Positions 4,514-30,203 of a stretch of 64,000 bases of DNA are shown here, one piece after another (the first letter of the stretch is position 1; the number at the start of each line of letters is the position of its first letter). The stretch comes from Klebsiella phage KP2025, in sequence record PP919962.1. The stretch is one strand, 5' to 3'. Below the pieces are notes generated by a model, which was not told the origin of the DNA, did no database searches, and worked only from the letters and a program-made list of their open reading frames with translations. Position numbers and translations under genes: made by a program.

Positions 4514-4861
4514 ATGAAAGTAGAAGTTGCAGTTGCAGTTGTACGTTGGGAAGAAGTAGACCTCGTAGAAGCAATGGAGTTTCATCGTATTGCTTGGGAC
4601 TATGACATTATTACAGGTAATTTTGCAGAACGCTACTATCCTGCGGAGAGGGATGATGTTATTCTGGAGATAAACCAAGAGCTAGTTAATACATGGGGTG
4701 GAGGTAATGACAGCCATAGTATTGCATGGTTGGAGTGTGCTTCGTTATTACCTATTCTTGAAGGTCTGCGCGGCAGTGATATTAAACGTGCAGTGGTACA
4801 GTATGTTAAAGACAATATCGAACGTGTGATTGACACAAATAAAACAGGAGGTTATTGGTGA
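4514..4861 (+). CDS. hypothetical protein
   Basis: GGAGGG RBS 6 nt before ATG 4514. Confidence 0.55.
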   Translation: MKVEVAVAVVRWEEVDLVEAMEFHRIAWDYDIITGNFAERYYPAERDDVILEINQELVNTWGGGNDSHSIAWLECASLLPILEGLRGSDIKRAVVQYVKDNIERVIDTNKTGGYW

Positions 4862-5475: not shown

Positions 5476-5694
5476 CCTGATATTATCTGATATTTTAAAA
5501 ATTTTATTTTTAGAATAAAGGGGGCGGGGGTTCAGATTTCCAGAGCCTCCAGCTTTCTAATCTAAATTACTACGTATTCTTAATAAATGATAACCGAATG
5601 TTCTCCCTACTTAAAACCAATTTGGAGCGAACATTTTTTGTTGCATAAACAGGTCATAAAACATAACCCTACCTTAGTTATAGAACAAATCAAA

Positions 5695-5930
5695 GGAAAA
5701 GTTTCTAAAATTATTTAAAGTTTCTACAGATTTCTTTGAACTTTTACCTAAAAACAAAATTTAAAATTTCCCTAAATTATTTAAACTTTTTCTGTATCTT
5801 ACTACAGAAAAAACGTAAACTAAAATTTAAAATTTCCAAAAAATTCCCCAATTATTAAAAGTTTTTCAACTTTTCGATCTGCATTTTTCCAAAAGCAAAA
5901 TTTAGAATTCTCTAAAAATTTCCAGATGCA
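5695..5930. repeat. A+T-rich imperfect direct repeats (units about 65 bp containing AAAATTTAAAATTTCC)
   Basis: AAAATTTAAAATTTCC at about 5756 and 5822, diverged copy at about 5898. Repeated ATTATTTAAA(G/C)TTT. Not CRISPR-like. Confidence 0.6.
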
Positions 5931-5949
5931 TATGATAATCATTATTATT

Positions 5950-6032
5950 TGCAAATGAGAATCATTCCCATTTAAAAAGTTGAATGAGAATCATTCTCAT
6001 CTACAAACCGAAATGATTCTCATTCGCATCTG
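5950..6032. repeat. three copies of inverted repeat ATGAGAATCATTC(T/C)CAT, third copy inverted
   Basis: TGAGAA-TCAT-TTCTCA dyad at about 5956, 5985 and 6012. Related copies at 15964, 17405, 19164 and 19333. Confidence 0.6.
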
Positions 6033-6281
6033 CGGAATGACAGGCAGGTTCGGTGTTTGTCTCGCGATTCCCGTTACCCCTCGCCATGTAGAAATAATAA
6101 CACAACCAACACCAGGATCAAGCGTCTTTACATTTCTTTACAAAACTCATTAAGGCGATCTACCGGCGATCTACCTTACATCCAGTGCCCTGGTATGCTA
6201 GCCCCGTTTAACGCCAGGGGCGGCGCTTCCTCTTCTGTATGTGATGATTATAGCCCAGCTTGCGCCAGGCTGTCAACACGT

Positions 6282-6476
6282 TTAATGAGAATCCTGGGAC
6301 AATCTTTTCTCGATCTCTCGTTTAGCCCGCTCCAGGCCTATCTCACCTTTATAGCCGATGATAGCGCAACGTGTGGAATGTGTGATCCCTGTCTTATACA
6401 CGTCATAACCGTATCCAACAATCTTTACCCAATATTTACCGCAAGGTGATTCGTAAGCAATATCTGACTCTTTCAT
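6282..6476 (-). CDS. hypothetical protein (only minus-strand gene in the early block)
   Basis: 64 aa ORF; GGAGG upstream of the ATG. Confidence 0.4.
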   Translation of the reverse strand: MKESDIAYESPCGKYWVKIVGYGYDVYKTGITHSTRCAIIGYKGEIGLERAKREIEKRLSQDSH

Positions 6477-6662
6477 TTTATTAACCTCGTTATGCCTCCA
6501 CCGTGGCGGCTTGATAACTACTATATACTAATGAAGGTAAAACGCAAGCGAAAAGATTTAGAAAATATTTGCATCCAAGTATTGACGCGAGGATCACACC
6601 GAGCTATTATTTCCTACACAAGGCGAGGCGATAGGCGCTGCGCGCACTAGGAAGAAAAGAAA

Positions 6663-6884
6663 ATGGCAACATTACACGTCGTAGTTTATAAGCACGCTGT
6701 AACGGGTGATGATATGATCCAGGTGCTTGTTAATGGCTTTTGTGAAATGGAAAGAGAAGGCGATTTTAACGGTTATTGTATTGTGTGTGCTTTCCTTGAT
6801 TCCCTGGTCGAAATGTGCGTGATCACTCACGACCAGCGCGAAGCGAAGATCAACCGCCTGAAAAAACTTTTAGATATCGAATAA
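6663..6884 (+). CDS. hypothetical early protein
   Basis: TTGACG-N17-TATTAT promoter at about 6577-6605 and GC hairpin upstream. Confidence 0.55.
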   Translation: MATLHVVVYKHAVTGDDMIQVLVNGFCEMEREGDFNGYCIVCAFLDSLVEMCVITHDQREAKINRLKKLLDIE

Positions 6885-6891
6885 AAACCGC

Positions 6892-6953
6892 TTGACAGAT
6901 TCACACAGTAACGTATAATTCACTTCATAGGCAGCGGGAATGGTTCCCGCGCC
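6892..6953 (+). promoter_or_regulatory. sigma70-type promoter plus 5' UTR stem-loop module
   Basis: TTGACA 6892-6897, TATAAT 6914-6919, hairpin GCAGCGGGAATGGTTCCCGCGCC 6931-6953. Confidence 0.65.
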
Positions 6954-6973
6954 GATACAAAGAGATTAAAATT

Positions 6974-7510
6974 ATGTCTGACATCATCGAAACTTTCAAA
7001 TTCTCCCGTAATAACATCGACTTTACTGTTAATGTAGTATGTGCACAATGTTATGATGGTTTTGGTGATCAATGGAAGATGACCGATACGCACGAGGGCG
7101 GCGTGACTATCAAAAATGCCGACGCCGGGCGGAATAGTTATAAATATGCCATTCCCCAGCAAACTACCCTGGCGGAGCTGGCAAGCTACTACGCTGCACA
7201 AGGGCGAGAAAACCCTAGCCGCGAAGCCTATGAAAGTTTACAGCGGCAATTATCACGAGATATTAACGCAAGTGATTATTATTTCACGGTTGACGCTAGC
7301 GCCGGATCTCATACCCTGTTAGATGGTGCGGTGATCGCTTGCGGGTTCGACTACTCATATGATGATGAGGGATCATTGTTAGACGCCGCCCAGGAAGTGT
7401 GGAAAGAGCACGATGGGGAAGCCGAAGCCCTGGAAGAGGCAACAAAAGCGGCGCGTGTTCTCTTGGAAGCTGTGGATGTGTTGAAAAGTATTGTTGAAAA
7501 CGCGCAATAA
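6974..7510 (+). CDS. hypothetical acidic early protein
   Basis: AAAGAGATTAAAATT ATG leader shared with sibling genes. 178 aa, D/E-rich. Confidence 0.65.
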   Translation: MSDIIETFKFSRNNIDFTVNVVCAQCYDGFGDQWKMTDTHEGGVTIKNADAGRNSYKYAIPQQTTLAELASYYAAQGRENPSREAYESLQRQLSRDINASDYYFTVDASAGSHTLLDGAVIACGFDYSYDDEGSLLDAAQEVWKEHDGEAEALEEATKAARVLLEAVDVLKSIVENAQ

Positions 7511-7513
7511 TAC

Positions 7514-7542
7514 TTGACGCGCCCAAAGAAAGGGCGCATAAT
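7514..7542 (+). promoter_or_regulatory. promoter with palindromic spacer
   Basis: TTGACG, spacer GCGCCCAAAGAAAGGGCG, then CATAAT. Confidence 0.6.
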
Positions 7543-7572
7543 TCTCCTACACCAACAAAAGAGATTTGAAAA

Positions 7573-7863
7573 ATGAAAATTTCAGAGAACAAAGATTTAA
7601 TTTTCACCGTTAAAAATTATATCCGCCACCCGTATGAATTTGGCGGATATCCGAAAATTTTAATTATGCGTGATGGTAGTTGCCTTTGCTCAAAGTGTAC
7701 GCATGAAAATTTTCCCCGCCTATTGGAAGAATTAAGAGATGAGAGTGATCTAGCATGGATGCCCGCGGACGTGGATGTTTTCTGGGAAGGTGCGGATTTC
7801 CCGTGTGGTAATTGCGGGACTCCGATCCATAGTGCATATGGAGATCCCGAAGAAGAAGAATAA
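7573..7863 (+). CDS. small zinc-finger protein
   Basis: CLCSKC...CGNCG pairs; acidic tail. Confidence 0.6.
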   Translation: MKISENKDLIFTVKNYIRHPYEFGGYPKILIMRDGSCLCSKCTHENFPRLLEELRDESDLAWMPADVDVFWEGADFPCGNCGTPIHSAYGDPEEEE

Positions 7864-7866
7864 ATA

Positions 7867-7924
7867 TTGACAAGCATCTAAAAGATAATAAACTGTTAAT
7901 CAAAGGGCGGGAATGGTTCCCGCC
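7867..7924 (+). promoter_or_regulatory. promoter plus 5' UTR stem-loop module
   Basis: TTGACA 7867, TAAACT -10, hairpin GGGCGGGAATGGTTCCCGCC 7905-7924. Near-duplicate of module at 9452. Confidence 0.6.
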
Positions 7925-7944
7925 ACAATAAAGAGAGAAAAATT

Positions 7945-8091
7945 ATGAAACAACGTGTAATGAAAATCCACACCAACACCGGATCAACCGTTGTAACTCC
8001 CTCCCGTTTCGCTATCGCAAGCCGTTGCGCTCGTTTGAAACGTGAGTTAAAATCTAACCAGGGCGCGGGGTTTACCAGATGGGGGAAATAA
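7945..8091 (+). CDS. small basic hypothetical protein (48 aa)
   Basis: Conserved leader AAAGAGAGAAAAATT ATG after hairpin. Below the track's 60 aa cutoff. Confidence 0.45.
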   Translation: MKQRVMKIHTNTGSTVVTPSRFAIASRCARLKRELKSNQGAGFTRWGK

Positions 8092-8098
8092 TAACGTA

Positions 8099-8359
8099 AT
8101 GAAGCCACTGTTTTTAAACTGTGAGGGCGAGGTGATCGCCTTCATGGATTCAACAGCCTACGATCTGGCACGGTATGCAATGACGTTTAAAGAGAACGTT
8201 TACAAACGGATTGGCGGCGGATACACTATCTTTAATCATCGTAATGCTGAGGTAAAGGACGTCACAAAGGTCGAGATAGGCAAATATCGGATCGGATGGA
8301 TGCCGTCAAGAGACGCGGCGAGCCTTTACCGTGTTTGCGAGTTAGTAACAAGGGGTTAG
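8099..8359 (+). CDS. hypothetical protein
   Basis: ORF with weak RBS. Confidence 0.45.
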   Translation: MKPLFLNCEGEVIAFMDSTAYDLARYAMTFKENVYKRIGGGYTIFNHRNAEVKDVTKVEIGKYRIGWMPSRDAASLYRVCELVTRG

Positions 8360-8362
8360 CCT

Positions 8363-8911
8363 ATGGGGCGCGAGCATGTTGTACAATCTTGGGTAAAACA
8401 TGATGAGGATGATTGGCGGGTAATACCGCCCCACCTCCTAGAAACTGCCAGCGGATACAGTGGCGAGCAAGTGGGGCAACGTGTAGCCCGTAACAACGGG
8501 AACACGGCGATTCGCGCCACGATTCCTGGTTGGCTGCCAAATGGCCGCGCCGACATTGCAGGGGCGGCAGATCCAGCGGATGAAGCAAAAGGTGATCCGC
8601 TACTGCTAGTAGATCCAGCGTTTAAGACGCTGTTAGAATACCCTAGCAAGGTGGCGGCACTGGAAGCGGCGTATCGGGCGGGTAAATTGCCGGATAGCTT
8701 ATATCGTAGCGCCTTGCGCGTCTTAGACGTGAAAGCAGATAAGGCACAGCGTAAAATTGATAAGCTGATTGGATCTGTCCTCCTGGAGGAAGAGAACGCG
8801 CCGGAGGAAGAGCCGGAGCTTGACCCGGTAGTCCTGGAAGAGGACGCGATCACGCCGTATCATCCTACGCCGGAAGAGGCAGCGCAAGCCCTGCGAAATT
8901 ATTTCAAATAA
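8363..8911 (+). CDS. hypothetical protein
   Basis: 182 aa. An antisense SG-rich ORF on the minus strand is judged spurious. Confidence 0.6.
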   Translation: MGREHVVQSWVKHDEDDWRVIPPHLLETASGYSGEQVGQRVARNNGNTAIRATIPGWLPNGRADIAGAADPADEAKGDPLLLVDPAFKTLLEYPSKVAALEAAYRAGKLPDSLYRSALRVLDVKADKAQRKIDKLIGSVLLEEENAPEEEPELDPVVLEEDAITPYHPTPEEAAQALRNYFK

Positions 8912-8915
8912 GGGA

Positions 8916-8973
8916 TTGACAAGCGCCCAAGAGGGGCGCATAATTCATCACATAGGGCGGCAATGATGCCGAC
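8916..8973 (+). promoter_or_regulatory. promoter with palindromic spacer plus 5' UTR stem-loop
   Basis: TTGACA, spacer AGCGCCCAAGAGGGGCG, CATAAT 8939-8944, hairpin GGGCGGCAATGATGCCGAC. Confidence 0.6.
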
Positions 8974-8990
8974 ACCAAAGAGGATAGATT

Positions 8991-9107
8991 ATGTTAATCA
9001 AGAAAGAAAACTGCTTTTTCACTGGTATTATTAATGCGCTGATCCTTTCGGTTCCATTGTGGGTAGTTATCGGTTTTACTTTGTGGTTAGTATCAAAAGC
9101 AGCGTAA
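8991..9107 (+). CDS. small membrane peptide (38 aa)
   Basis: AAAGAGGATAGATT ATG; hydrophobic core. Confidence 0.4.
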   Translation: MLIKKENCFFTGIINALILSVPLWVVIGFTLWLVSKAA

Positions 9108-9196
9108 AAACTAGTTGACAGGCAGATCCAAAGGGTCTAATATTCATATCAAGGCGGGGAGATAGGCGAACCGCCAAAGCTGAAAAGGTTAGCATT

Positions 9197-9424
9197 ATGG
9201 CAAAGTCAAAAGGTTTTAACGGTCACAAAAACTGGAATCATTGGAACGTTTCATTATGGATCAATAATGACGAGGGATTATACCGCCTTGCAATGAATTG
9301 CATTTCATCCACTGACAACCGCGACGAAGCCGCCGCCAAAATGTTGCGCAGCGTGAGCAAGAAAACGCCGGACGGCGCACCGTACAGCAAAACCACGATC
9401 CGCGCTGCGATGGTTGGAATGTAG
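9197..9424 (+). CDS. hypothetical protein
   Basis: TTGACA-N17-TAATAT promoter at about 9113 and GGCGG..CCGCC hairpin upstream. Confidence 0.55.
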   Translation: MAKSKGFNGHKNWNHWNVSLWINNDEGLYRLAMNCISSTDNRDEAAAKMLRSVSKKTPDGAPYSKTTIRAAMVGM

Positions 9425-9451
9425 AAAAATCGTCAATCTTATAAAATAAGG

Positions 9452-9507
9452 TTGACAACCTTCTAAAATAAAGTAAACTGTTAATCAAGGCGGGAATAGT
9501 TCCCGCC
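9452..9507 (+). promoter_or_regulatory. promoter plus 5' UTR stem-loop module
   Basis: TTGACA 9452, TAAACT -10, hairpin GGCGGGAATAGTTCCCGCC. Confidence 0.6.
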
Positions 9508-9526
9508 ACAACAAAGAGAGAAAATT

Positions 9527-9688
9527 ATGATTGCCATGAATACTCGCGAAGCCGCTCGCAACGTAGCCCGTAAAGTTAACGCCGTTGCACCTGCTAAATT
9601 GAAAGCACCAGTGAAAGGCGAAAACGGCTGGATCTTCCCTGGCTTGTCTCATGCTGACGGAAAAGGCACCTTGAGCCTGAAAAAATAA
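9527..9688 (+). CDS. small hypothetical protein (53 aa)
   Basis: Leader AAAGAGAGAAAATT ATG identical in style to 7945 gene. Confidence 0.45.
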   Translation: MIAMNTREAARNVARKVNAVAPAKLKAPVKGENGWIFPGLSHADGKGTLSLKK

Positions 9689-9689
9689 G

Positions 9690-9726
9690 TTGACTTTTCG
9701 TTATGCCGTGCTATCCTGTACGGCAT
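9690..9726 (+). promoter_or_regulatory. promoter with -10 inside hairpin loop
   Basis: AAAAATAAG TTGACTTTTCG then ATGCCGT-GCTATCCTGT-ACGGCAT. Confidence 0.5.
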
Positions 9727-9781
9727 AGAGAAAAAGAAACATCCGGCAATAATGCCAAAATCATCAATAAAGGAGATAAAC

Positions 9782-10027
9782 ATGACTACTACTAACCTGC
9801 TGAAAACCCCGCGTATCGGTGATTCTGTATTCATTGGTTTTGCCACTAATGGGGACGGCAAAATGGTTAAAGGTGGCGCTGAAATTCCGTTCGATAAGGT
9901 GGCGGCAATCTACGCCGAAACTTCCACCACTAAGGACGGCAAAATCATGCATCATGTACGCACAGCAAGCGGCGACGCCGTTGCAGTGATCGGTTGTTCA
10001 AAAAACTACTGGCACGCTGTTAAATAA
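9782..10027 (+). CDS. hypothetical protein
   Basis: AAAGGAGATAAAC ATG. Confidence 0.55.
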   Translation: MTTTNLLKTPRIGDSVFIGFATNGDGKMVKGGAEIPFDKVAAIYAETSTTKDGKIMHHVRTASGDAVAVIGCSKNYWHAVK

Positions 10028-10033
10028 ATATCG

Positions 10034-10070
10034 TTGACTTTTCGTTATAGCGTCCTATAATGGGCGCTAT
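10034..10070 (+). promoter_or_regulatory. promoter with TATAAT inside hairpin loop
   Basis: TTGACTTTTCG...TATAGCG-TCCTATAATGG-GCGCTATA. Confidence 0.55.
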
Positions 10071-10108
10071 AGAGAAGAGAAACTAGCCCAACAAAAGAGA
10101 GTAAGAAA

Positions 10109-10282
10109 ATGGAAATTATCGCAGAACTTAGAATAAAAGGTATCGATCCGGTCATTATGACTTATGAGGATCTGCAATATACCGTAACATATGGTGAACA
10201 ATCTGAAACTTACGATTATTACGATGAAGCGGAGCAGGCTTTTAACGCGTTTGCCGAGATTGCCCTAGATGAATATCGTTAA
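10109..10282 (+). CDS. small acidic hypothetical protein (57 aa)
   Basis: AAGAGAGTAAGAAA ATG. Confidence 0.5.
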   Translation: MEIIAELRIKGIDPVIMTYEDLQYTVTYGEQSETYDYYDEAEQAFNAFAEIALDEYR

Positions 10283-10289
10283 AAATAAG

Positions 10290-10326
10290 TTGACTTTCTG
10301 TGATGCCCCTTTATAATAAGGGGCAT
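10290..10326 (+). promoter_or_regulatory. promoter with TATAAT inside hairpin loop
   Basis: TTGACTTTCTG then ATGCCCCTT-TATAAT-AAGGGGCAT. Confidence 0.55.
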
Positions 10327-10362
10327 TGAAGAGAGAAGACCAACAATCTAACGAGGTGTAAA

Positions 10363-10584
10363 ATGGTTACATTTGCAATTATTTCCCTGGTGGCTGGCAA
10401 CGTGTTTATCAATGATACTTTCGCGGCGGATGATAGCAAGCCAGGAGAAATCAGCACAGCTTATGCAGATTGTAAAGCCGCTGAACGTATGTTATCGCCT
10501 TGCCTGCTGATGAGTGAACGCGAGGACGGGAAAATCGTATTCACCAACGTTGAAACCTGGTATCAATTGGTAGTTGCAAAATAA
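10363..10584 (+). CDS. small secreted protein (signal-peptide-like N-terminus)
   Basis: Hydrophobic N-terminus ending FAADD. Confidence 0.5.
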   Translation: MVTFAIISLVAGNVFINDTFAADDSKPGEISTAYADCKAAERMLSPCLLMSEREDGKIVFTNVETWYQLVVAK

Positions 10585-10632
10585 ATTTCATCTGATAGAA
10601 TACTGACATCACTTAAGTAAAAGGGAAATAAT

Positions 10633-10860
10633 ATGAAACGCAAAATCACTATTTCTTATGAGTGGACGCAAGCAGATGGTAGTGAAGTACTGGATCACCA
10701 CAAAGAGTACTTGGAAGAGTCAGCCGATGAGCGTATCCGGGAACAGATTGGAGCAGGTTGTATTAAGGGGCAATTGCTCGACAACATCCACACGCAGGAA
10801 GATCCCGACGACCACGAAGGGACAGAGTATAAAGGTTGGTGGACTTTAATTATCGAGTAA
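10633..10860 (+). CDS. hypothetical acidic protein
   Basis: AAAGGGAAATAAT ATG. Confidence 0.5.
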   Translation: MKRKITISYEWTQADGSEVLDHHKEYLEESADERIREQIGAGCIKGQLLDNIHTQEDPDDHEGTEYKGWWTLIIE

Positions 10861-10947
10861 AATTAGTGGCAAAATAAATTTAGTACTTTATAATACTTAC
10901 CTACAGACAGATAGTCTGTTCTTATTTGACTACAACAGAGTAATGAA

Positions 10948-11100
10948 ATGAATCCTAATCATAAAATGATGATGGAAGCAAGCCGTTTTATCAATAAAAC
11001 AGAAAAAAGAAAATGTTTTGTTTTATGTCTCATAACGCTTGCAATTGGTTTAGCTTGTGTTATTATTACTTACGCTGATTTATCAAATACCACTAAATAA
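10948..11100 (+). CDS. small membrane protein (50 aa)
   Basis: ORF with one TM segment; weak RBS. Confidence 0.35.
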   Translation: MNPNHKMMMEASRFINKTEKRKCFVLCLITLAIGLACVIITYADLSNTTK

Positions 11101-11111
11101 GAGATAAGATT

Positions 11112-11468
11112 ATGAATAACATCCTGATCGAGAAACGCGCCGAACTGCTGGAAGTTAAACAGGCTATCTATGCAAAACAGAGGGAGATCCGCAACTTCTC
11201 TTATGAGTCAACTGATGATGAGTATGATTCTTATTTGGATGGATGCTATGGCGATCTTGACGTTTGCGGCAGCACTTTCAGCGCGTCCTATGCTCTTAAA
11301 AACCTTGACCCTACGGCGTACCGTTGCGGCAAGTCAGATTATGACAGCGAAAAAGATCTTGACGATGTGCCGGAGTATGTTACACTCACGGAAGAGCTGG
11401 AAGAGCTGGAAGAGCTGGAAAGCGATCTTGAAAGTGAGATTGAAGAGCTGGAAGAGAGCGAAGAATAA
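11112..11468 (+). CDS. highly acidic coiled-coil protein
   Basis: C-terminal EELEELEELESDLESEIEELEESEE. Confidence 0.55.
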   Translation: MNNILIEKRAELLEVKQAIYAKQREIRNFSYESTDDEYDSYLDGCYGDLDVCGSTFSASYALKNLDPTAYRCGKSDYDSEKDLDDVPEYVTLTEELEELEELESDLESEIEELEESEE

Positions 11469-11560
11469 TTTTAAAAACAGGTTGACACGGTAGACGGTTT
11501 AAAGTAGATTAGTATTCAAGGGGGAGCGGTTCCCCCCACTAACAACAAAGGCGATACATC

Positions 11561-11932
11561 ATGAAATCAGCAGAGAAAATTAAATCTTACATCCTGGCGG
11601 CGATTGATTTTGAAGGTGAGAACGGCAAAACGTTTACCACCGAGGGAGAGAAGATCACCGAACTGATGCGCCGCTTTAAATGTGAATATTGGTATCCAGC
11701 AAATCAGCAGCGCTACGGCACCATGACAAAAGCAATGGCCTCGTGGTTGCAGGGATTGCCGAGTGAAATCGGCATTGCATTCTATTATGATGAGATTGAT
11801 TCTCTTTTGATTGAGTGGGGTTATCTGAAACATACTAGCCGCGAAGCAACAATTGACCGCGAGCGGGATCAATACTGGCTTTATCTGGCAGGTTCACTAA
11901 TGAGCCTTGCGAAGCGGTATAATCTAGCTTGA
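11561..11932 (+). CDS. hypothetical protein
   Basis: Promoter TTGACA 11484 and GGGGGAGCGGTTCCCCCC hairpin upstream. Confidence 0.6.
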   Translation: MKSAEKIKSYILAAIDFEGENGKTFTTEGEKITELMRRFKCEYWYPANQQRYGTMTKAMASWLQGLPSEIGIAFYYDEIDSLLIEWGYLKHTSREATIDRERDQYWLYLAGSLMSLAKRYNLA

Positions 11933-12008
11933 GATTGAATCTGGCATAAGATACACAATAAGAGCGGCAGCAATGCCGCTAACATTAAAATAAAACGAGG
12001 GTTTAAAA

Positions 12009-12143
12009 ATGAATGGTAGCCACCACGTCGAAAAAATGGCAAGCGATAAACAGCGAAAAGCATGGGACGATGAAACCGGGCGCAAAGGAGACAAGCGCAA
12101 CAAAACAAAACGAGATCGAAGTCAAAAACGGAATTGGGAATAA
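12009..12143 (+). CDS. small highly basic protein (44 aa)
   Basis: K/R-rich; followed directly by a terminator. Confidence 0.4.
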   Translation: MNGSHHVEKMASDKQRKAWDDETGRKGDKRNKTKRDRSQKRNWE

Positions 12144-12146
12144 TAA

Positions 12147-12178
12147 GGAGGGGCGCTGAATGCGCCTCTTTCCGTTTA
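12147..12178 (+). terminator. rho-independent terminator
   Basis: AGGGGCGC-TGAA-TGCGCCTCT then TTCCGTTT. Confidence 0.55.
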
Positions 12179-12260
12179 TACAGCGTTTTCTATAGTGAGC
12201 CATACAAACACCAGGGAGCACCATAAAAACCGCTTAGAACGCATTACAGGAGCTTAGACA

Positions 12261-12443
12261 ATGACATTAGAACAGATTCAAAAGGCACTAGCCCAGGGCG
12301 GCAGACTTTCAGCACGTTACCGTGATCAATGGGGCTTTATCATTAGCGGCGTGATCCTGGCTATTGAGGGCGGCGACCTGCTGATCGATACCCTGAAAAA
12401 CCGAGTGAAGCCGGAGATGGTGATATCTATCAAGTACCTTTGA
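12261..12443 (+). CDS. hypothetical protein
   Basis: RBS embedded in conserved element copy D (12229-12260). Confidence 0.5.
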   Translation: MTLEQIQKALAQGGRLSARYRDQWGFIISGVILAIEGGDLLIDTLKNRVKPEMVISIKYL

Positions 12444-12534
12444 TTGATAGGTTTAAACGATTAGACACTGCATCGATAATGGCACATAGTGAATACATAA
12501 AGCGGGGCAAAGGCCAGCTAGGGGAGGAAACGAA

Positions 12535-12918
12535 ATGAAAAAATTTATCATCGCCGCTATGCTGGCAGCAGTAAGCGCCAGCGCAGCAGCAGACACCGAG
12601 ATCAACGTGATGAGCGCAAGCCGTGATTTACGCGCCAGCATTGAAAAAATGTTAATTGTATCAGGCGATAATAACGCAACGTTACGATCTTACACCTTAT
12701 CAAAAACCTTTGAGGACGCGCTTGATTCTCAAATGATACCTATTCTCAATAATAACCCTGATGCATCATGCGAGCTTATCGCAGCGCGGATCGCGGAAAA
12801 CGGGCGGCAGAACTACGCGCCTTATCAGGTTAACCCACTTATGACAAGGGCTATCGATAATATGATCGGTAAAATGGTTGTTTATACTATGGCGCGGTGT
12901 TATTACTTAAAGGGTTGA
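12535..12918 (+). CDS. secreted or periplasmic protein
   Basis: GGGGAGGAAACGAA ATG. Signal peptide MKKFIIAAMLAAVSASAAA. Confidence 0.6.
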   Translation: MKKFIIAAMLAAVSASAAADTEINVMSASRDLRASIEKMLIVSGDNNATLRSYTLSKTFEDALDSQMIPILNNNPDASCELIAARIAENGRQNYAPYQVNPLMTRAIDNMIGKMVVYTMARCYYLKG

Positions 12919-12973
12919 CAGGAAGCACTTGATCGATTATCTTTAAGCCAGGCAAACAAAAGGGTAAAGAAAA

Positions 12974-13249
12974 ATGATTCAGGCTAACACTTTAATGATG
13001 TTTCAGGAAGTGCAAAACGCCGCTGTAATGGTTGAGCAATTCCAGGACGGCGACACCATGATCGCCACGTTGAAAGAGAACGCCGAAAGCATCCTAATCA
13101 TTAGCTTGAAAACAGTTTCAAAAGGTTACTACTCCCTTGCTTATCATTTCATTACTAATGATGATGAAACAAGCCAGGATTTTTCCTTGCCTTTCCCGGC
13201 AAATTATGCGCCTTCTTTTGTAGCGGCAATTGTTAATGATGTTTTCTAA
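12974..13249 (+). CDS. hypothetical acidic protein
   Basis: ORF with AAAGGGTAAAGAAAA ATG. Confidence 0.55.
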   Translation: MIQANTLMMFQEVQNAAVMVEQFQDGDTMIATLKENAESILIISLKTVSKGYYSLAYHFITNDDETSQDFSLPFPANYAPSFVAAIVNDVF

Positions 13250-13615
13250 TGGGTAACGAATAAAGAAAGTCAATAGCTTTTCCAGTTATTTTTCATTTTT
13301 GCGTTATGCAAAAAAGTGAATTTAAAGACTTCTCACGCAAGATGATTAAGGGTATGGCAAACGGTTAGAGCCTCTTAGAATGCGTTTTAGAGCGTTTTAG
13401 AGGGTATTGACTTTTCCCGAAATACTCAAAGCGTCTTAAATTTAGTTTCATCGTGTGATTATTTGCATACGGGTGCATTTCTATGCAATTTAGTGAATAA
13501 TGTAAAAATGCAGAATATTACATTCCTCCCTATTGACTACCGCGCCCAATTTGTTATGATTTATCACATAGGGCGGGGCAATAATGCAGCGCCACAAAAT
13601 CCGAAGGATTGCATC

Positions 13616-14074
13616 ATGAATAAATTCTGTGTAGGTCAAAAAGTTATTGATTGTTTCAATGATCGTAAACTGTTAACGATTGTTAAAACTTTTGAATCTG
13701 GTCAAATCGAGCTTGAAAACGGCGTGATCACCTATACGGATCGGGTTCAACGCCAAGAGCATTACCTTGACCATACAAATTACCTGTACCATCATTCTCG
13801 TTTTGGTGATGCTGTATGCATGATCAATGAAGCGTTTCAAGAGTACATTTCAGCACTTGCCGAAATGGGAGATTTATGCTCTTATCCTGGGGAATCTGTT
13901 TTCATAATGAAAGCGCGTACCATGTGCCAAACGTGGATCGACGAAGCCGCCGCGAGGATTGAGCATGGTTTAGCCTGGAAGCGTACAGCAGAACATAATT
14001 TATCACAGTGGTATCGTGTACCGCTTGATCATCACTTCCCATTCCTTAACCCTGAAAATGTGACAGACTACTAA
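13616..14074 (+). CDS. hypothetical protein
   Basis: TTGACT-N16-TATGAT promoter at 13536 plus GGGCGGGGCAATAATGCAGCGCC hairpin. ATG 13616 preferred over the track's upstream start. Confidence 0.55.
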   Translation: MNKFCVGQKVIDCFNDRKLLTIVKTFESGQIELENGVITYTDRVQRQEHYLDHTNYLYHHSRFGDAVCMINEAFQEYISALAEMGDLCSYPGESVFIMKARTMCQTWIDEAAARIEHGLAWKRTAEHNLSQWYRVPLDHHFPFLNPENVTDY

Positions 14075-14083
14075 AAAATAGTG

Positions 14084-14143
14084 TTGACAGCGCCCAATAA
14101 AGGGCGCATAATTCATTACATAAGGCGGGGAGTGGTTCCCCGC
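14084..14143 (+). promoter_or_regulatory. promoter with palindromic spacer plus 5' UTR stem-loop
   Basis: TTGACA, spacer GCGCCCAATAAAGGGCG, CATAAT 14107-14112, hairpin GGCGGGGAGTGGTTCCCCGC. Confidence 0.65.
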
Positions 14144-14161
14144 TAAATGAGAGATTTAATT

Positions 14162-14386
14162 ATGTTCGATTTAGACAGACTGGCAACAGCGATTGAAAAA
14201 GCAGGTGATGCAAAGTATGGCATCCAAGATCATTACTTTATCGGTCAATATCCTGATGGTACTTACTACGGTGTATTGTCTAATAAAGTGAAAAGCCGTA
14301 GCAGCGCCGCGCAACTGCGAAGCCCGGAATTTTTCGAACAAAAAGGCATTAAAGCGATCAAGGTTATGAAGCGTAAAGCTAAATAA
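14162..14386 (+). CDS. hypothetical protein
   Basis: Leader GAGATTTAATT ATG. Confidence 0.5.
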   Translation: MFDLDRLATAIEKAGDAKYGIQDHYFIGQYPDGTYYGVLSNKVKSRSSAAQLRSPEFFEQKGIKAIKVMKRKAK

Positions 14387-14388
14387 AT

Positions 14389-14418
14389 TTGACAACGCGC
14401 CCGGTAAGGGCGCATAAT
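14389..14418 (+). promoter_or_regulatory. promoter with palindromic spacer
   Basis: TTGACA, spacer ACGCGCCCGGTAAGGGCG, CATAAT 14413-14418. Confidence 0.6.
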
Positions 14419-14447
14419 GCTACCAAGTCAATAGCGAGAGCGACAAT

Positions 14448-14684
14448 ATGAAAACGAAAAGCATTCTCATTAACAAAAAATTTCCCAATCGTGTATGGGA
14501 GATCAGCGAAGTGATCAACGCGGGGACGATTGAACAATATAACCGTTTGATCGGGTATATCCGGGAAACTGAATGCGGTTATGTGTGGACTCATTCTGGA
14601 CTAAACCGCGAAAGCGCAAGCTATTTCCCAACAAAACCCCTTGCGCTGGTAGGTTTAAAGCTGGTGCATCAAGATTATAAATAA
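14448..14684 (+). CDS. hypothetical protein
   Basis: ORF after promoter 14389. Confidence 0.55.
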   Translation: MKTKSILINKKFPNRVWEISEVINAGTIEQYNRLIGYIRETECGYVWTHSGLNRESASYFPTKPLALVGLKLVHQDYK

Positions 14685-14691
14685 TTTATTT

Positions 14692-14724
14692 CGCCCCGGG
14701 GCTTGATCTCCCTGGGGCGTTTTG
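14692..14724 (+). terminator. rho-independent terminator overlapping next promoter
   Basis: CGCCCCGGGGCTTGATCTCCCTGGGGCG then TTTT. Confidence 0.6.
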
Positions 14725-14777
14725 CTATCCTTATTTTGTGGGCGGGAATGGTTCCCGACACATAACGGGGATTTAAC

Positions 14778-15077
14778 ATGCAACCTTTACAATTACTTTC
14801 CACTTTACGCGCTATCGCCAACAACACTCTGATCGCTTGCCAGCGCCAGGAGTTTAAACCTGAATTCATCTATAAGAATCATAACCAGCAGTTAGCCACA
14901 ATTGAACAGGCAATTAGTGGTTACAAAATGGGGGTAAAGGTTAACGCGAAATATAAAGCGGAGATCAAGAAAATAACGCTTGCACCAATGAAGGAAAAGA
15001 CCTATTATCTAATCAGCGAGCAGGTGAAAGGCGGCGTAAGCCAGTTAACAAGCGCCATAGAATTTATGAAGCGCTAA
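14778..15077 (+). CDS. hypothetical protein
   Basis: Preceded by GGGCGGGAATGGTTCCCGAC hairpin. Confidence 0.55.
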   Translation: MQPLQLLSTLRAIANNTLIACQRQEFKPEFIYKNHNQQLATIEQAISGYKMGVKVNAKYKAEIKKITLAPMKEKTYYLISEQVKGGVSQLTSAIEFMKR

Positions 15078-15117
15078 CAATCCAGGAGGGCGGCAGCAAT
15101 GCCGCCAACAATGAAGA

Positions 15118-15381
15118 ATGAAAAACATCATTTACCGATTGACAAAACGCAACATTCTGATCGCTACTGTGATCGCTTGCCTTTTCGCTTTCGTTAGTAA
15201 CGCAACGTTTAACGCTGTGGGCGGGATGATGTTTAACGCTGGCAACGTTTCAACAGCTAACACAATGATCGACCTTTTGCAACTTTTCTTTTATGTTGCC
15301 TTTCGTTTAAAAATAGCTTGCAAACTGGATCGCTATGATGTACCTTTTATTTGTGGCGGCGTGATAGCTATTGTATGTTAA
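15118..15381 (+). CDS. membrane protein
   Basis: Hydrophobic. Preceded by GGCGGCAGCAATGCCGCC hairpin. Confidence 0.5.
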   Translation: MKNIIYRLTKRNILIATVIACLFAFVSNATFNAVGGMMFNAGNVSTANTMIDLLQLFFYVAFRLKIACKLDRYDVPFICGGVIAIVC

Positions 15382-15394
15382 CCGGAGTAAAAAC

Positions 15395-15688
15395 ATGTTA
15401 AGATCTAACAAAAATTTAAAATTACGTCAATCCCTCGTTAATATGGCGATCAGTGTTGAGCCGTACAAACGAAAAGAGCCTAAGCAAGATATGCGAGGAC
15501 GGAAAACAACCTGGACAGATCAACAGGTATTAGAGATCCGGGCCTTACATAAATATGGCGGCATGTTACCCGCCGAAATTGCAGAACGTTACAACACGAC
15601 AAAAGGCGCAATAAATAGCTTGCTTTCTTATGTAACCCGCGTACACTTAGAGCCAGAAAGAAAACATTTACCAGCGAGAGAGGCTTGA
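15395..15688 (+). CDS. small helix-turn-helix protein (possible transcription regulator)
   Basis: CCGGAG RBS then ATG 15395. HTH-like GGMLPAEIAERYNTTKGAINSLLS. Confidence 0.5.
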   Translation: MLRSNKNLKLRQSLVNMAISVEPYKRKEPKQDMRGRKTTWTDQQVLEIRALHKYGGMLPAEIAERYNTTKGAINSLLSYVTRVHLEPERKHLPAREA

Positions 15689-15763
15689 CAATAGCAGCGG
15701 GTCTGGTAAAGTGTATCACGTAGGCCGAGGAATAAGCCGAAGCCCGTCAAAGAGGTTAGAAAC

Positions 15764-15961
15764 ATGTTTACTTACTTGCTAATTAATGATTCATCTAATG
15801 AAGTGGTACATACTGATAAACCATCTTTACCGGGTTTTCGTCATTTTGGTAAATATGAAAATTGCAAGCAAATTTCGTGCTTTACTGGAAAGGTCATTTC
15901 CACCGTTGAGGATGATTTGGAAATCCTCACAAAAATTTGTAACTTGCGTTTAACTAAATAG
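15764..15961 (+). CDS. hypothetical protein
   Basis: TTGACA 15676 promoter and AAGAGGTTAGAAAC ATG. Confidence 0.45.
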   Translation: MFTYLLINDSSNEVVHTDKPSLPGFRHFGKYENCKQISCFTGKVISTVEDDLEILTKICNLRLTK

Positions 15962-15963
15962 GA

Positions 15964-16356
15964 ATGATTCTCATGTCCAACTTCGATATCTTTTTAGCGG
16001 CTTATATTGAGGCTATGTTGTGGAGTAGTAGCGGGACAACCCCGGACGGGGAAGATCTGGAAAGTCTGGAAGGGTTCGAACTTTCCACCGAAGCAAAACG
16101 CAAGGCAAAGGAAGAATGCGAACAATTCTTATTTGTATCACAGATCCTTTTCCTGGGGCTGCCTGAATGGTACGGAAAAGGCGACGGCGGGATCTATACT
16201 TATGCGGGGCATGATTTTTGGCTTACTCGCAACGGTCACGGCGCTGGATTCTGGGATCGTGGGCTTGAGGATATAGGCGACCGCTTAACAGAAGTTAGTA
16301 AAACTTTTGGGGAGCTTGATCCATACATTGGCGACGATGGGAAAATTTATTTTTAA
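15964..16356 (+). CDS. hypothetical protein
   Basis: Start region carries the GAATGATTCTCAT motif. Alternative ATG 15973. Confidence 0.5.
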   Translation: MILMSNFDIFLAAYIEAMLWSSSGTTPDGEDLESLEGFELSTEAKRKAKEECEQFLFVSQILFLGLPEWYGKGDGGIYTYAGHDFWLTRNGHGAGFWDRGLEDIGDRLTEVSKTFGELDPYIGDDGKIYF

Positions 16357-16441
16357 AAACGCTTGCAACGCTGATCGCCGTTTGCTATAGTTACTTTGAA
16401 GGGCGGGAACTTCTCCCGCTCAATCCTCAAAGGGTAAGAAA

Positions 16442-16705
16442 ATGGAAATCATCCTGGAACGTTACACCGTCAAAGAAACTGGCCTGATCGCTTTCAAACG
16501 TTTGGTAGTGGTTCAAAATGCAAATGGACTCTTTGAGGTTGTTAAAGAAGTTGATTATGGTCGGGGCGCTGGTGTGACAGTGGCAAAGATGCCTATCAAG
16601 CCTTATAAAACCCGTAAGGGCGCAGAAAAGGCGATGCAAGCCTATCAGCCTAAACGCTATCAAATGACCCTAGTCGAGGGTTTAATGATGGAAGGTAAAA
16701 TCTAA
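16442..16705 (+). CDS. hypothetical protein
   Basis: TTGCAA-N17-TATAGT promoter 16369 and GGGCGGGAACTTCTCCCGC hairpin upstream. Confidence 0.55.
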   Translation: MEIILERYTVKETGLIAFKRLVVVQNANGLFEVVKEVDYGRGAGVTVAKMPIKPYKTRKGAEKAMQAYQPKRYQMTLVEGLMMEGKI

Positions 16706-16751
16706 CAATTCAGGGGAGCCGCTACGGTTCCCCATCTTTGGAATAATAAAA

Positions 16752-16946
16752 ATGACTAGTAGCGAAGAAATTAGAAAAGCCATAGCTGTTTTACGCTATC
16801 ATAACCGATTAAAGGTTATTAATGACCCTGATTATGTAGGATCAACATTTGAGGCGGATACATTGGACAGTATATCATCGTTAGCAGAGTTACATAAACG
16901 TATGACCGAAAGTAACAGATCGGATTTTATCGGTGGGGAAATATAA
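16752..16946 (+). CDS. hypothetical protein
   Basis: Preceded by GGGGAGCCGCTACGGTTCCCC hairpin. Confidence 0.45.
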   Translation: MTSSEEIRKAIAVLRYHNRLKVINDPDYVGSTFEADTLDSISSLAELHKRMTESNRSDFIGGEI

Positions 16947-16947
16947 T

Positions 16948-17274
16948 ATGATTATCTTTTGCAACATTCTCAAAAAGTATGTTTTCCAAATGTCAAGTTT
17001 TCGTGTCTATTGGTCTAAGCGTGGACACTACACTGCCAGCAGTAAAGCGGGAGCTATGCCAGGCACTGGAAACGGAGAGATCGAAAGCACAGGAGCCACA
17101 ACAGGAGAGGCCGTTAAAAACTTACATTTAGCCTTGATCCAACGTAGAGCAGCATTGCAAGCCAAAATTGAAGAGGTGGAGGAAGCAATGTATCAAGTCT
17201 CCCGTAATGGATGGAAAGCAGAGGATTTGTTATTGTTACCGAAAGAAGGCGAGATCGGCAGCAAGAAACGCTAA
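16948..17274 (+). CDS. hypothetical protein
   Basis: GGGGA RBS then ATG 16948 (track GTG 16933). Confidence 0.45.
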   Translation: MIIFCNILKKYVFQMSSFRVYWSKRGHYTASSKAGAMPGTGNGEIESTGATTGEAVKNLHLALIQRRAALQAKIEEVEEAMYQVSRNGWKAEDLLLLPKEGEIGSKKR

Positions 17275-17288
17275 AATCTTTACAATTC

Positions 17289-17316
17289 CAGGGCTTGCTT
17301 TTTGCCCTGGTTTTGC
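17289..17316 (+). terminator. rho-independent terminator
   Basis: CCAGGGCTTGCTTTTTGCCCTGG then TTTT. Confidence 0.6.
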
Positions 17317-17738
17317 TATTATCTTTTATAGGCGATGGCACCTGATGCAGGGGGAGACAAACACCGAACCTGCCTAGCATTCAGGGAAGCTAACCGAACC
17401 TGGACGCCTCCCTTCAAATGAGAATTACTCGCAACAAACATCGTGCCAACTTTACTTTCTAAATGAGAAAAATTCTTATTAGTGAGATCTATTTGTTTAT
17501 GAGCTAGGGTATTGCCAGGACACAAAAGCGCTTAAAATCGATTCTAGAGCGTTTTAAAGGTATGTATGTTTATACAGGACTTGAAAATAAATTTGACAAA
17601 GATTTTATAGTGTGCTATTCGCATATGATTGTTTTCTTTACAGTTCTTTACAAATCTACTCTTGCATGAAATATCGGTTATGGTATTATTTATCTCGTAG
17701 GGCAGGAACACGAAATCAACTTAACGAGGTAAACGAAA

Positions 17739-18107
17739 ATGACTATCATCAATCTGAATACTACTATTAAAGGTAAAGATTTTGGCGGCGTAGTAGATCA
17801 TGATCCGATGTGGTCACTTTCTGTTTTCAAAGGTGATTTAATCGATGTTGTAACCATTGACAGCGGGTCAGATGATTATAAGTGTGAAATTCATCTTACA
17901 AACTGGTACACTGGCAAAGTTTACGCCCTGGATCGCGTGATCATCGGTCGAATCGAAACATTAGAGGACGAAGAAACCGGAGAAACCTTTGATTATTATA
18001 TCAATAGCACTAACCGCGCAGAACGCTTGTTAGAGAAGATGAAAGAAAAAGGAACTATTGATTTATCTCACTGGGTGGACATTACAAACGATCCAGCCTA
18101 CAAATAA
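17739..18107 (+). CDS. hypothetical protein
   Basis: AACGAGGTAAACGAAA ATG. Last gene of early block. Confidence 0.6.
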   Translation: MTIINLNTTIKGKDFGGVVDHDPMWSLSVFKGDLIDVVTIDSGSDDYKCEIHLTNWYTGKVYALDRVIIGRIETLEDEETGETFDYYINSTNRAERLLEKMKEKGTIDLSHWVDITNDPAYK

Positions 18108-18120
18108 AACACCATTTCAA

Positions 18121-18149
18121 AGGGGCGCACAAAGCGCCCTTTCTTTTTG
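18121..18149 (+). terminator. rho-independent terminator
   Basis: GGGCGC-ACAAA-GCGCCC then TTTCTTTTTG. Confidence 0.7.
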
Positions 18150-30187: not shown

Positions 30188-30203
30188 TGAAGGATATTGC
30201 AAA

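Follow-up and report, generated by a model that had tools for sequence, protein, structure and literature searches.

Promoter-early stem-loop (PeSL)-type cassettes in an early gene array of Klebsiella phage KP2025

The early array and its intergenic cassettes

Sequence record PP919962.1 from Klebsiella phage KP2025 provides a stretch of 64,000 nt (hereafter the window; coordinates refer to it, and features lie on its plus strand unless stated otherwise) in which positions 6582–16946 hold an early hyperplastic array of small genes separated by cassettes of about 80 nt that contain a promoter, a hairpin, and a leader. From a table of open reading frames (ORFs) and intergenic regions we counted 30 ORFs between 6663 and 16946, with products of 38–182 aa, fewer than the approximately 35 given in a preliminary description of this DNA. 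That description also assigned a promoter and a hairpin of its own to each gene, which proved too generous: approximately 19–20 promoters scoring at least 9/12 (several at 11–12/12) lie between 6582 and 16391, the remaining genes stand in operon-like pairs, and approximately 12 of the 30 genes have a hairpin downstream of the −10 hexamer. In the tight pairs, the genes at 8099, 8363, 11112, 15395, and 15973 follow the previous gene after 3–13 nt, and we found neither a promoter nor a hairpin at these operon-internal junctions (8091/8099, 8359/8363, 11100/11112, 15381/15395, and 15961/15973). A GC hairpin is present in most cassettes of at least 40 nt, irrespective of its position relative to the promoter.

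A megablast search with positions 6890–16760 identified Klebsiella phage KP13-26 as the closest relative (coverage 94%, identity 93.5%), and the Klebsiella phages FKP3, phi1_175008, vB_KpM_FBKp34 (FBKp34), and KP13-16 as further relatives. All five are classified in the Stephanstirmvirinae, the myovirus subfamily that includes phages like phi92 and phAPEC8 and whose genomes measure approximately 140 kb according to the records of these relatives, and sequence similarity places the window in a Klebsiella phage of this subfamily. The gene content of the array is unlike among all five relatives, the array genes are annotated as hypothetical proteins in their records, and the ten largest array ORFs match PHROG families only, mostly families of unknown function.

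We distinguish the hairpins by their position relative to the promoter. In class A, a stop codon is followed by TTGACA, a spacer of 16–17 nt, TAnnnT, 9–11 nt that often read tcatCACATA or gttaatCAA, and then the hairpin, which has a stem of 7–10 bp with a G-rich 5′ arm, a loop of typically 3–5 nt, and a C-rich 3′ arm. The leader that follows is A-rich and about 20 nt long, and each cassette ends with a GAGAG- or AGGAG-like sequence and an ATG 17–23 nt downstream of the hairpin. The hairpins listed in the preliminary description are all present, within 1–4 nt, as judged by reading the sequence and by an exhaustive hairpin scan. Its main variant, GGGCGGGAATGGTTCCCGCC, had been placed at six sites; it is exact at 7905 and has one to three mismatches at 6932, 9488, and 14740, whereas those at 14124 and 16401 have diverged further and were recovered by the covariance model described below (36 and 26 bits). 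Four matches to this motif were observed versus none in 100 shuffles. Good hairpins also stand behind its relaxed variants at 8956–8973, 11520–11537, 11963–11980, 15089–15106, and 16713–16733, but the one at 9743 has a stem of just 4 bp. A position approximately 10 nt after a sigma70-like −10 hexamer, claimed for the hairpins in general, holds for ten copies (6934, 7906, 8956, 9153, 9489, 11520, 13572, 14124, 14741, and 16401; gaps 8–14 nt).

The cassette at 6892–6953 joins TTGACA-16-TATAAT (6892–6919) to a hairpin at 6930–6953 with the core GCGGGAATGGTTCCCGC (6934–6950) ahead of gene 6974; the model match is 31 bits, and the predicted fold of the 5′ untranslated region (UTR) has −16.5 kcal/mol and a z-score of −3.2. 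At 7867–7924, TTGACA-16-TAAACT (7867–7894) precedes the exact motif copy GGCGGGAATGGTTCCCGCC (7906–7924; model match 39 bits, predicted fold −14.5 kcal/mol, z −4.3) and gene 7945, and a paralogue of this cassette at 9452–9507 carries TTGACA-16-TAAACT, the hairpin GGCGGGAATAGTTCCCGCC (9489–9507; 36.5 bits), and gene 9527. The conserved leader noted earlier is borne out in this pair, as ACAAYAAAGAGAGAAAA(A)TTATG at 7925 and 9508. The cassette at 11482–11537 consists of TTGACA-17-TAGATT and GGGGGAGCGGTTCCCCCC (11520–11537) upstream of gene 11561, and that at 16363–16421 of TTGCAA-17-TATAGT and GGGCGGGAACTTCTCCCGCTC (16401–16421; one G·U pair, 26 bits, z −4.0) upstream of gene 16442. More irregular members are found at 9115–9175, where TTGACA-17-TAATAT is followed by the long-looped hairpin GGCGG-N13-CCGCC (9153–9175; weak model match, 8.8 bits) and gene 9197; at 13533–13593, with TTGACT-16-TATGAT, the imperfect hairpin GGCGGGGCAATAATGCAGCGCC (13572–13593), and gene 13616; and at 6582–6643, where the first rightward promoter (TTGACG-17-TATTAT) leads to an imperfect hairpin at 6623–6643 of weak structure (z −1.2) and gene 6663. 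At 14692–14759 a canonical terminator (14692–14719, then TTTTG) precedes a class A hairpin at 14741–14759 (20 bits) and gene 14778. This terminator has a 10-bp GC stem whose loop contains the −35 hexamer (TTGATC) of the weak next promoter (8/12), so that it forms a composite terminator-promoter.

Class B hairpins, GCGCCC-N5-7-GGGCGC, occupy the promoter spacer, with their last base being the first base of CATAAT. The four copies (7519–7537, 8923–8939, 14090–14107, and 14397–14413) have a constant stem and loops of 5, 5, 6, or 7 nt. Those at 7519 (N7; in the spacer of TTGACG-17-CATAAT, cassette 7514–7542) and at 14397 (in the spacer of TTGACA-18-CATAAT, cassette 14389–14418) stand alone, and the 24-nt leader of the former is unstructured. 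The other two share a cassette with a class A hairpin: at 8916–8973, TTGACA-17-CATAAT with GCGCCC-N5-GGGCGC is followed by GGCGGCAATGATGCCGAC (8956–8973) and gene 8991, and at 14084–14144 the spacer hairpin is followed by GGCGGGGAGTGGTTCCCCGCT (14124–14144; model match 36.3 bits, predicted fold −16.9 kcal/mol, z −4.2) and gene 14162. The presence of both classes in the same two cassettes suggests that they differ in their job. We also considered the class B palindromes as operators of a dimeric repressor and judged this unlikely: a constant stem combined with a variable loop, and hence with half-sites at variable distances, argues for a nucleic-acid hairpin and against an operator for a dimeric protein.

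In class C, a stem of 17–18 bp presents the −10 hexamer as its loop. The three copies are a 17-bp hairpin at 9695–9734 with the loop TATCCT (cassette 9690–9734) and two 18-bp hairpins at 10038–10079 and 10294–10335 with the loop TATAAT (cassettes 10034–10079 and 10290–10335). The lower stem is conserved (CTTTTCGTT / AGAGAAAAG), and the upper stem covaries strongly among these copies and those of relatives (gccgtgc/gtacggc, agcgtcc/gggcgct, and gcccctt/aaggggc). The length of these stems suggests possible RNase III substrates in read-through RNA or, alternatively, DNA cruciforms. Because class B and C hairpins precede the transcription start of the gene that they serve, they lie outside the mRNA made from their own promoter, and the leaders downstream of class B and C promoters are unstructured in predicted folds.

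A few hairpins lack a convincing promoter. The hairpin AGCGGCAGCAATGCCGCT at 11963–11980 is 10 nt downstream of the −10-like hexamer TAAGAT and precedes gene 12009, and GGGGAGCCGCTACGGTTCCCC at 16713–16733 is 11 nt downstream of the −10-like TAAAAT and precedes gene 16752; neither has a good −35 hexamer, and at the former site FKP3 has an 8/12 promoter and phi1_175008 a 9/12 match. The 9743/9745 element, with its stem GGCA/TGCC, lies approximately 20 nt inside the predicted transcript. Finally, GGCGGCAGCAATGCCGCC at 15089–15106 has no promoter at all and stands between two cistrons, with AGGAGG (15084) upstream and ATGs at 15111 and 15118 downstream, and it is kept in FBKp34, phi1_175008, and KP13-16. 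The AGGAGG is strong and lies 21–28 nt upstream of these ATGs, with the hairpin in between. The stretch 15084–15120 might therefore be a split ribosome-binding site united by a hairpin, by analogy with gene 38 of T4, where a hairpin joins such a split site.

Promoter coupling, structure, and conservation of the hairpins

The covariance model that the preliminary description had called for was built from 17 copies with 9 base pairs. Within the window its significant plus-strand matches are confined to 6928–16425, and strong sigma70-like promoters at 433, 1835, and 27287 and, on the minus strand, at 38329 and 44556 have no such hairpin. The search of related phages that had been proposed along with the model shows that the module recurs in Escherichia coli and Klebsiella relatives. 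Among 58 plus-strand model matches, 50 (86%) have a promoter of at least 9/12 whose −10 hexamer ends 6–14 nt upstream of the hairpin, compared with 4.2% of random positions. A scan for hairpins near promoters in eight sequences, including the early regions of the coliphages ESCO13 and JohannJBalmer, located hairpin starts in two sharp peaks relative to the end of the −10 hexamer, at +8 to +12 and at −27 to −23. Many early promoters of ESCO13 and JohannJBalmer read TTGACA-N16/17-TAnnnT-gtatcacata-GGGCGGCAATGGTGCCGCTC. Of 44 distinct cassettes, 30 carry C-A, the dinucleotide at which transcription usually starts, 8 nt past the −10 hexamer, and starts predicted from the −10 hexamer and the C-A would leave an unpaired 5′ tail of 2–4 nt in 39 of the 44.

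BLAST analysis with one 86-nt cassette retrieved 60 phage records, mostly Escherichia phages (Phapecoctavirus and Justusliebigvirus) and Klebsiella relatives, together with a few Serratia, Shigella, Acinetobacter, and Campylobacter phages. An exact composite pattern (promoter, gap, and GGCGGGAANNNTTCCCGCC) matched only two contigs in IMG/VR, a pattern too strict to gauge the spread of the element. Every copy lies on the coding strand, and the 5′ arms are rich in G (216 G vs. 57 C). Their stems belong to two sequence families, and the cores GGAA-UGG-UUCC and GGCA-AUGG-UGCC recur across E. coli and Klebsiella phages; the loops (UGG, UAG, UUG, CGG, UGA, CAC, CUU, AUGG, GCAA, and one of 13 nt) share no invariant unpaired nucleotide. 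An Rfam 15 scan of positions 5000–19000 with E values up to 1 returned only a chance match to mir-304 far below its gathering score.

We counted base pairs in the 45 distinct plus-strand rows of the model alignment, using column shuffling as the null. Standard pairs are formed by 91% of stem cells versus 76 ± 1% after shuffling, and compensatory double changes occur in 47 cells versus 13.6 ± 3.3, with none of 1,000 shuffles reaching as high a count; typical compensations replace G-C by C-G at two stem positions and by A-U or C-G at a third. On the sense strand, G·U outnumbers A·C by 23 to 7 in this alignment and by 13 to 5 in a model-independent count restricted to internal positions. Orthologous sites tell the same story: the hairpin at 11963 is AGCGGCAGCAATGCCGCT in the window and CGGCGGGAACTTCCCGCC in FKP3 and phi1_175008 with unchanged flanks, and the leader of gene 11561 carries GGGGGAGCGGTTCCCCCC in the window versus GGCGGGAATTGTTCCCGCC in KP13-26, a changed sequence in which the stem is kept. 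Base pairing rather than sequence is thus preserved, through both compensation and hairpin swaps, as would be expected of 5′-terminal stabilizing stem-loops, and the hairpin structure is probably under selection as sense-strand RNA.

Leaders were folded from the predicted start, 7 nt after the −10 hexamer. Class A leaders fold at about −10 to −17 kcal/mol, and the hairpin makes up most of this minimum-energy structure; z-scores fall to −4.7 in the best copies and are weak at 6623, 8956, 13572, and 15723. The Shine-Dalgarno region is predicted to remain unpaired in most of these leaders. The sequence after the stem is unlike that of an intrinsic terminator, in which a U-rich tract follows: among 46 distinct copies from the window and its relatives, the 8 nt downstream of the stem average 1.35 T and 4.09 A, and five or more T occur in no copy, in agreement with the preliminary description, which had noticed no U-tract. 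A T-run does follow three of four terminator-like hairpins in or beside the array, those at 14692, 17288 (17288–17310), and 18120 (18120–18142), whereas the fourth, at 12147–12171, has none. An antisense terminator, that is, a minus-strand hairpin followed by CUUUGAUUAA, was rejected as a general role since only the copies at 7906 and 11963 pass a loose rule. In the FBKp34 record a “terminator” is annotated at 4810–4853 of its stretch; this is the hairpin GGGAGAGATAGCCTCTCCC, 10 nt after TTGCAA-16-TATAAT. It occupies a position of the class A type, and automated terminator calls in these genomes may mislabel leader hairpins.

Recombination joints, known counterparts, and function

To delimit mosaic blocks we compared positions 5000–19000 with the five Klebsiella relatives by BLAST. 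Of 73 block ends, 56 fall inside intergenic cassettes (± 6 nt), versus 25% expected. Two deletions relative to the window have junctions in or beside a hairpin. In FKP3 the two genes that lie between 6953 and 7907 are missing, and its chimeric cassette joins the 6892 promoter to the leader of gene 7945 in the form found in KP13-26, the switch occurring within the shared 20-mer GCGGGAATGGTTCCCGCGCC. KP13-16 lacks 7949–9451, and its junction consists of the 7867 cassette through the loop TGG, followed by the 9452 leader. Other boundaries are placed similarly: similarity to KP13-26 stops at the end of the −10 hexamer of the 14389 cassette (14418) and resumes at the ATG (14448), and in the 16363 cassette it stops within the hairpin, at 16409; at 16448, FBKp34 joins the same cassette to a different downstream gene; the 16713 hairpin moves with its downstream gene in FKP3, where the upstream gene is different; and the gene at 15118–15381 is missing in FBKp34, phi1_175008, and KP13-16, with the insertion junction directly downstream of the hairpin at 15089–15106. 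A role of the cassettes in recombination is the best-supported functional statement that we can make.

Cassettes of this layout have been described in T4-like phages. PeSL cassettes were reported in RB49 and phi1 and later in T4/PST and KVP40/nt-1 (Arbiol et al. 2010, PMC2839356; Comeau et al. 2014, PMC4122927); they comprise strong sigma70 promoters and G(n)-loop-C(n) stem-loops in five positional subclasses, mostly in the spacer or over the −10 hexamer, their 3′ end supplies a Shine-Dalgarno sequence and an ATG, and they are concentrated in hyperplastic ORFan regions (PMC2839356, PMC4122927). Mini-circles of PeSLs were reported in RB49 and phi1, and the stem-loop of PeSL211/210 of RB49 lowered downstream lacZ expression about as much as the terminator rrnB T1 (PMC2839356). 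In KP2025, likewise, near-consensus sigma70-like promoters with 16–18-nt spacers lie upstream of small ORFs, a GC stem-loop and a Shine-Dalgarno/ATG complete gaps of about 80 nt between small ORFans, the elements cluster in one hyperplastic region, and hairpins are found in the spacer, with the −10 hexamer as loop, downstream of it (approximately 12), and with the −35 hexamer in the loop (14692). Indel junctions of close relatives fall within the element, stem-loop included, as in the chimeric cassettes of FKP3 and KP13-16. Our own scan of the RB49 hyperplastic region placed hairpin starts at −26/−24 (spacer) and −18/−16 (−10 hexamer in the loop), positions that match classes B and C here (−27 to −23).

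The cassettes thus pass every architectural comparison with PeSLs that we made and fail on lineage and sequence homology only. They belong to the Stephanstirmvirinae and not to the Straboviridae, and no record named as a T4-type phage was among the matches listed in the cassette BLAST analysis; we therefore regard them as analogous to PeSLs and not demonstrably homologous. Because the published definition of PeSLs is architectural, this limits a claim of common descent but not the claim that the elements are of the same kind. Two further differences concern the hairpin itself. Class A (+8 to +12) dominates in KP2025, whereas it accounts for 1 of 14 hairpins, at +9, in the scanned stretch of RB49, and the published stem-loops were read as terminators or attenuators, whereas class A lacks a U-tract. 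We conclude that the array consists of PeSL-type cassettes in another phage lineage, with the transcribed-hairpin subclass dominant, and that it represents a known architecture and no new mechanism, so that the “dedicated system” of the preliminary description reduces to a published pattern. This precedent was overlooked there, as were the positions of the class B and C hairpins, the promoter-less hairpins, and the role of the modules in crossovers. In the searchable literature we found no account of such elements, nor transcriptomes, for rV5-, phi92-, or phAPEC8-like phages, which is weak evidence.

For the class A hairpin the closest functional counterparts are 5′-terminal stem-loops that stabilize mRNA. 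Such hairpins hinder 5′-end-dependent decay by RppH and RNase E, and those in the 5′ UTRs of ompA and papA and in the leader of T7 gene 10 (phi10) are experimentally proven single cases. Emory and colleagues and Bouvet and Belasco, both in 1992, reportedly described protection of mRNA by 5′-terminal stem-loops, and the reference list of PMC3997798 includes both papers. The likeness to these cases consists in a GC hairpin a few nucleotides from the predicted 5′ end, a short leader, and an accessible ribosome site, and the predicted tail of 2–4 nt is within the range reported to protect from 5′-end-dependent RNase E. The KP2025 hairpin differs in being a repeated module that serves about a dozen genes per genome, its start sites are predicted, and we claim no homology. 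The 5′ stem-loop of the T7 gene 10 (phi10) transcript is GGGAGACCACAACGGTTTCCC. The hairpin at 16713, GGGGAGCCGCTACGGTTCCCC, resembles this leader, and the resemblance is probably a coincidence of form.

Together, these features lead us to favor, at somewhat better than even odds, a reading in which the array is built from portable early cassettes of the PeSL type whose class A hairpin shields the 5′ end of the mRNA and whose modules double as homology patches. A strong host sigma70 promoter, a GC stem-loop, and an A-rich Shine-Dalgarno leader would form a portable expression cassette in which the class A stem-loop begins 8–12 nt after the −10 hexamer. From the conserved C-A, 7–8 nt past that hexamer, where host RNA polymerase would be expected to start, the mRNA would open with 2–4 unpaired nucleotides and the 7–10 bp hairpin and would reach its ribosome site about 20 nt later. 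By analogy with the known cases, such a 5′-terminal hairpin would most likely protect short, mostly mono- or dicistronic early mRNAs from the 5′-end-dependent decay that involves RppH and RNase E. As DNA, the conserved modules of 20–80 bp act as homology patches at which recombination deletes, inserts, or exchanges the intervening ORFs. Class A fits a 5′-terminal protective stem-loop, and is unlike a terminator or insulator, in its position after the promoter, its fixed offset, the predicted tail of 2–4 nt, the free ribosome site, the sense-strand G·U bias, and the lack of a U-tract. The geometry accordingly sides with the preliminary description, which had seen 5′-terminal stem-loops rather than terminators; the offset, the C-A, the predicted tail, and the covariation would all fit. 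We infer the start sites and the stabilizing effect; what we computed is how the cassettes are built, how far they are conserved and covary, their coupling to promoters, the missing U-tract, and the crossovers at hairpins.

Several points weigh against this interpretation. All start sites are consensus predictions, and a tail of 3–4 unpaired 5′ nucleotides is nearly as long as protection would tolerate. Descent and gene conversion tie the copies to one another, which inflates the covariation statistics and the constancy of spacing, and the alignment behind the pair counts was fitted to the model, which inflates the figures further. Three or four hairpins (15089, 16713, 11963, and 9745) lack a convincing promoter and would be 5′-terminal at best after RNA processing. 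The start lies downstream of the class B and C hairpins, so that any one function shared by all hairpins would need read-through RNA or DNA; for these two classes such an action, in read-through RNA or in DNA, is the more plausible one and is what the authors of the PeSL work put forward. The clustering of breakpoints between genes must be partly survivorship, because rearrangements that leave genes intact persist. Finally, the one PeSL stem-loop of RB49 assayed with lacZ behaved about like rrnB T1 (PMC2839356).

That RB49 result also speaks for reading the stem-loops as terminators or attenuators, as proposed for PeSLs, which would damp upstream transcription so that tandem promoters do not add up. 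The same reading would accommodate the class B and C hairpins, which lie upstream of their own start and are followed by an A/T-rich −10 hexamer, the promoter-less hairpins between cistrons (15089 and 16713), and the label “terminator” on one class A-like hairpin of FBKp34 (4810–4853). With intrinsic terminators class A has in common that it is a short GC-rich intergenic stem-loop, but it is placed just downstream of a promoter and would abort its own transcripts too; a U-tract is absent from all 46 copies, which are A-rich downstream, although the neighbors at 14692, 17288, and 18120 do have T-runs; and termination has no need of a fixed offset from the −10 hexamer. The different jobs suggested by the two cassettes that combine classes A and B (8916 and 14084) also speak against it, and we consider it unlikely. 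More doubtful still are barriers or processing boundaries in read-through RNA, that is, REP-like blocks to 3′ exonucleases or cleavage sites that set the stability of each cistron. A GC hairpin in most cassettes of at least 40 nt regardless of promoter position, the conservation of the promoter-less hairpin at 15089 in three relatives, and the 17–18 bp stems of class C, which would be long enough for RNase III, are what such boundaries would lead one to expect, but they leave unexplained why 86% of the hairpins of families 1 and 2 lie 6–14 nt from the −10 hexamer and why the predicted 5′ tail is 2–4 nt, and five operon-internal junctions have no hairpin.

The preliminary description had offered an RNA-binding regulator as its alternative; nothing that we found supports a specific one, and a binding site for a phage or host protein (a translational repressor that turns early genes off, an antiterminator like N, or a factor that labels phage mRNA) deserves to be kept as a rival, if an improbable one. 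The element heads many transcripts of one temporal class, and the cores GGAA-UGG-UUCC and GGCA-AUGG-UGCC are common to E. coli and Klebsiella phages; boxB of the lambda nut sites, bound by N, and translational operators are likewise small hairpins that occur early in early phage transcripts, in several units. In contrast to these, the KP2025 family has no loop signature and no Rfam match within 5000–19000; its stems fall into two families and covary freely, its loops vary from 3 to 13 nt, and no unpaired nucleotide is invariant. No candidate binder emerged, the early ORFs that were tested being almost all in families of unknown function. A more specific version, to which we give about as little credence, is that throughout the Stephanstirmvirinae lineage the 5′-terminal hairpin labels early mRNAs as “self” for a dedicated factor, which would make it a specific recognition element rather than a generic cap; it could exempt phage mRNA from a phage-triggered burst of host mRNA decay, akin to the action of T4 Srd or T7 gp0.7 on RNase E, or, just as speculatively, recruit a phage protein that times early shut-off. 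An activator of RNase E resembling T4 Srd was not found among the 20 larger ORFs scanned against PHROGs, the other ORFs of the window and genome not having been scanned. Least likely in our estimation is a role at the DNA level only, in which the inverted repeats would be recombination sites, used homologously or as extruded cruciforms cut by a phage nuclease, with no part played by RNA. Crossover in or beside the hairpin at two independent junctions, the enrichment of block ends in cassettes, and the PeSL mini-circles of RB49 and phi1 (PMC2839356) accord with such sites. Recombination requires identity and not pairing, yet pairing is kept as the sequence changes, and the excess of G·U over A·C on the sense strand in both counts, the coding-strand orientation of all copies with their G-rich 5′ arm, and the fixed promoter offset also count against it.

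The KP2025 array extends the PeSL idea, in which small promoter/stem-loop modules drive early ORFans and allow their shuffling, to an unrelated subfamily of myoviruses whose members are widely employed to treat Klebsiella and E. coli by phage therapy, and it suggests that such cassettes are a general and possibly convergent answer to carrying fast-evolving genes for host takeover. The transcribed subclass is a compact natural expression unit that could serve synthetic biology and phage engineering, and the cassettes show annotators of these genomes where to expect gene boundaries and recombination joints.

Other features of the window

A divergent control region at 6247–6610 borders the array; it contains the first rightward early promoter (6582–6610) and, on the minus strand, a perfect-consensus promoter, TTGACA-18-TATAAT, at 6276–6247, directed at leftward small ORFs. 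Within the array, a gap of 366 nt (13250–13615) has no obvious gene and is kept in relatives. It contains a tandem repeat, GCGTTTTAGAG twice (approximately 13383–13404), and an extra TTGACT (approximately 13407), and could be a candidate for a small RNA, a tiny ORF, or a regulatory region. No tRNA genes were found in the 64-kb window. Matches to PHROG families comprise a Sir2-like NAD-dependent deacetylase, a glycosyltransferase, an HNH endonuclease, and an ATPase, among the ORFs at 34657–35535 (minus strand), 30144–30836, 23888–25108, and 3348–4472. The 96-aa product of 7573–7863 carries the PHROG label “DNA ligase” and is likewise so annotated in some records; the protein is far too short, and the label is probably an artefact.

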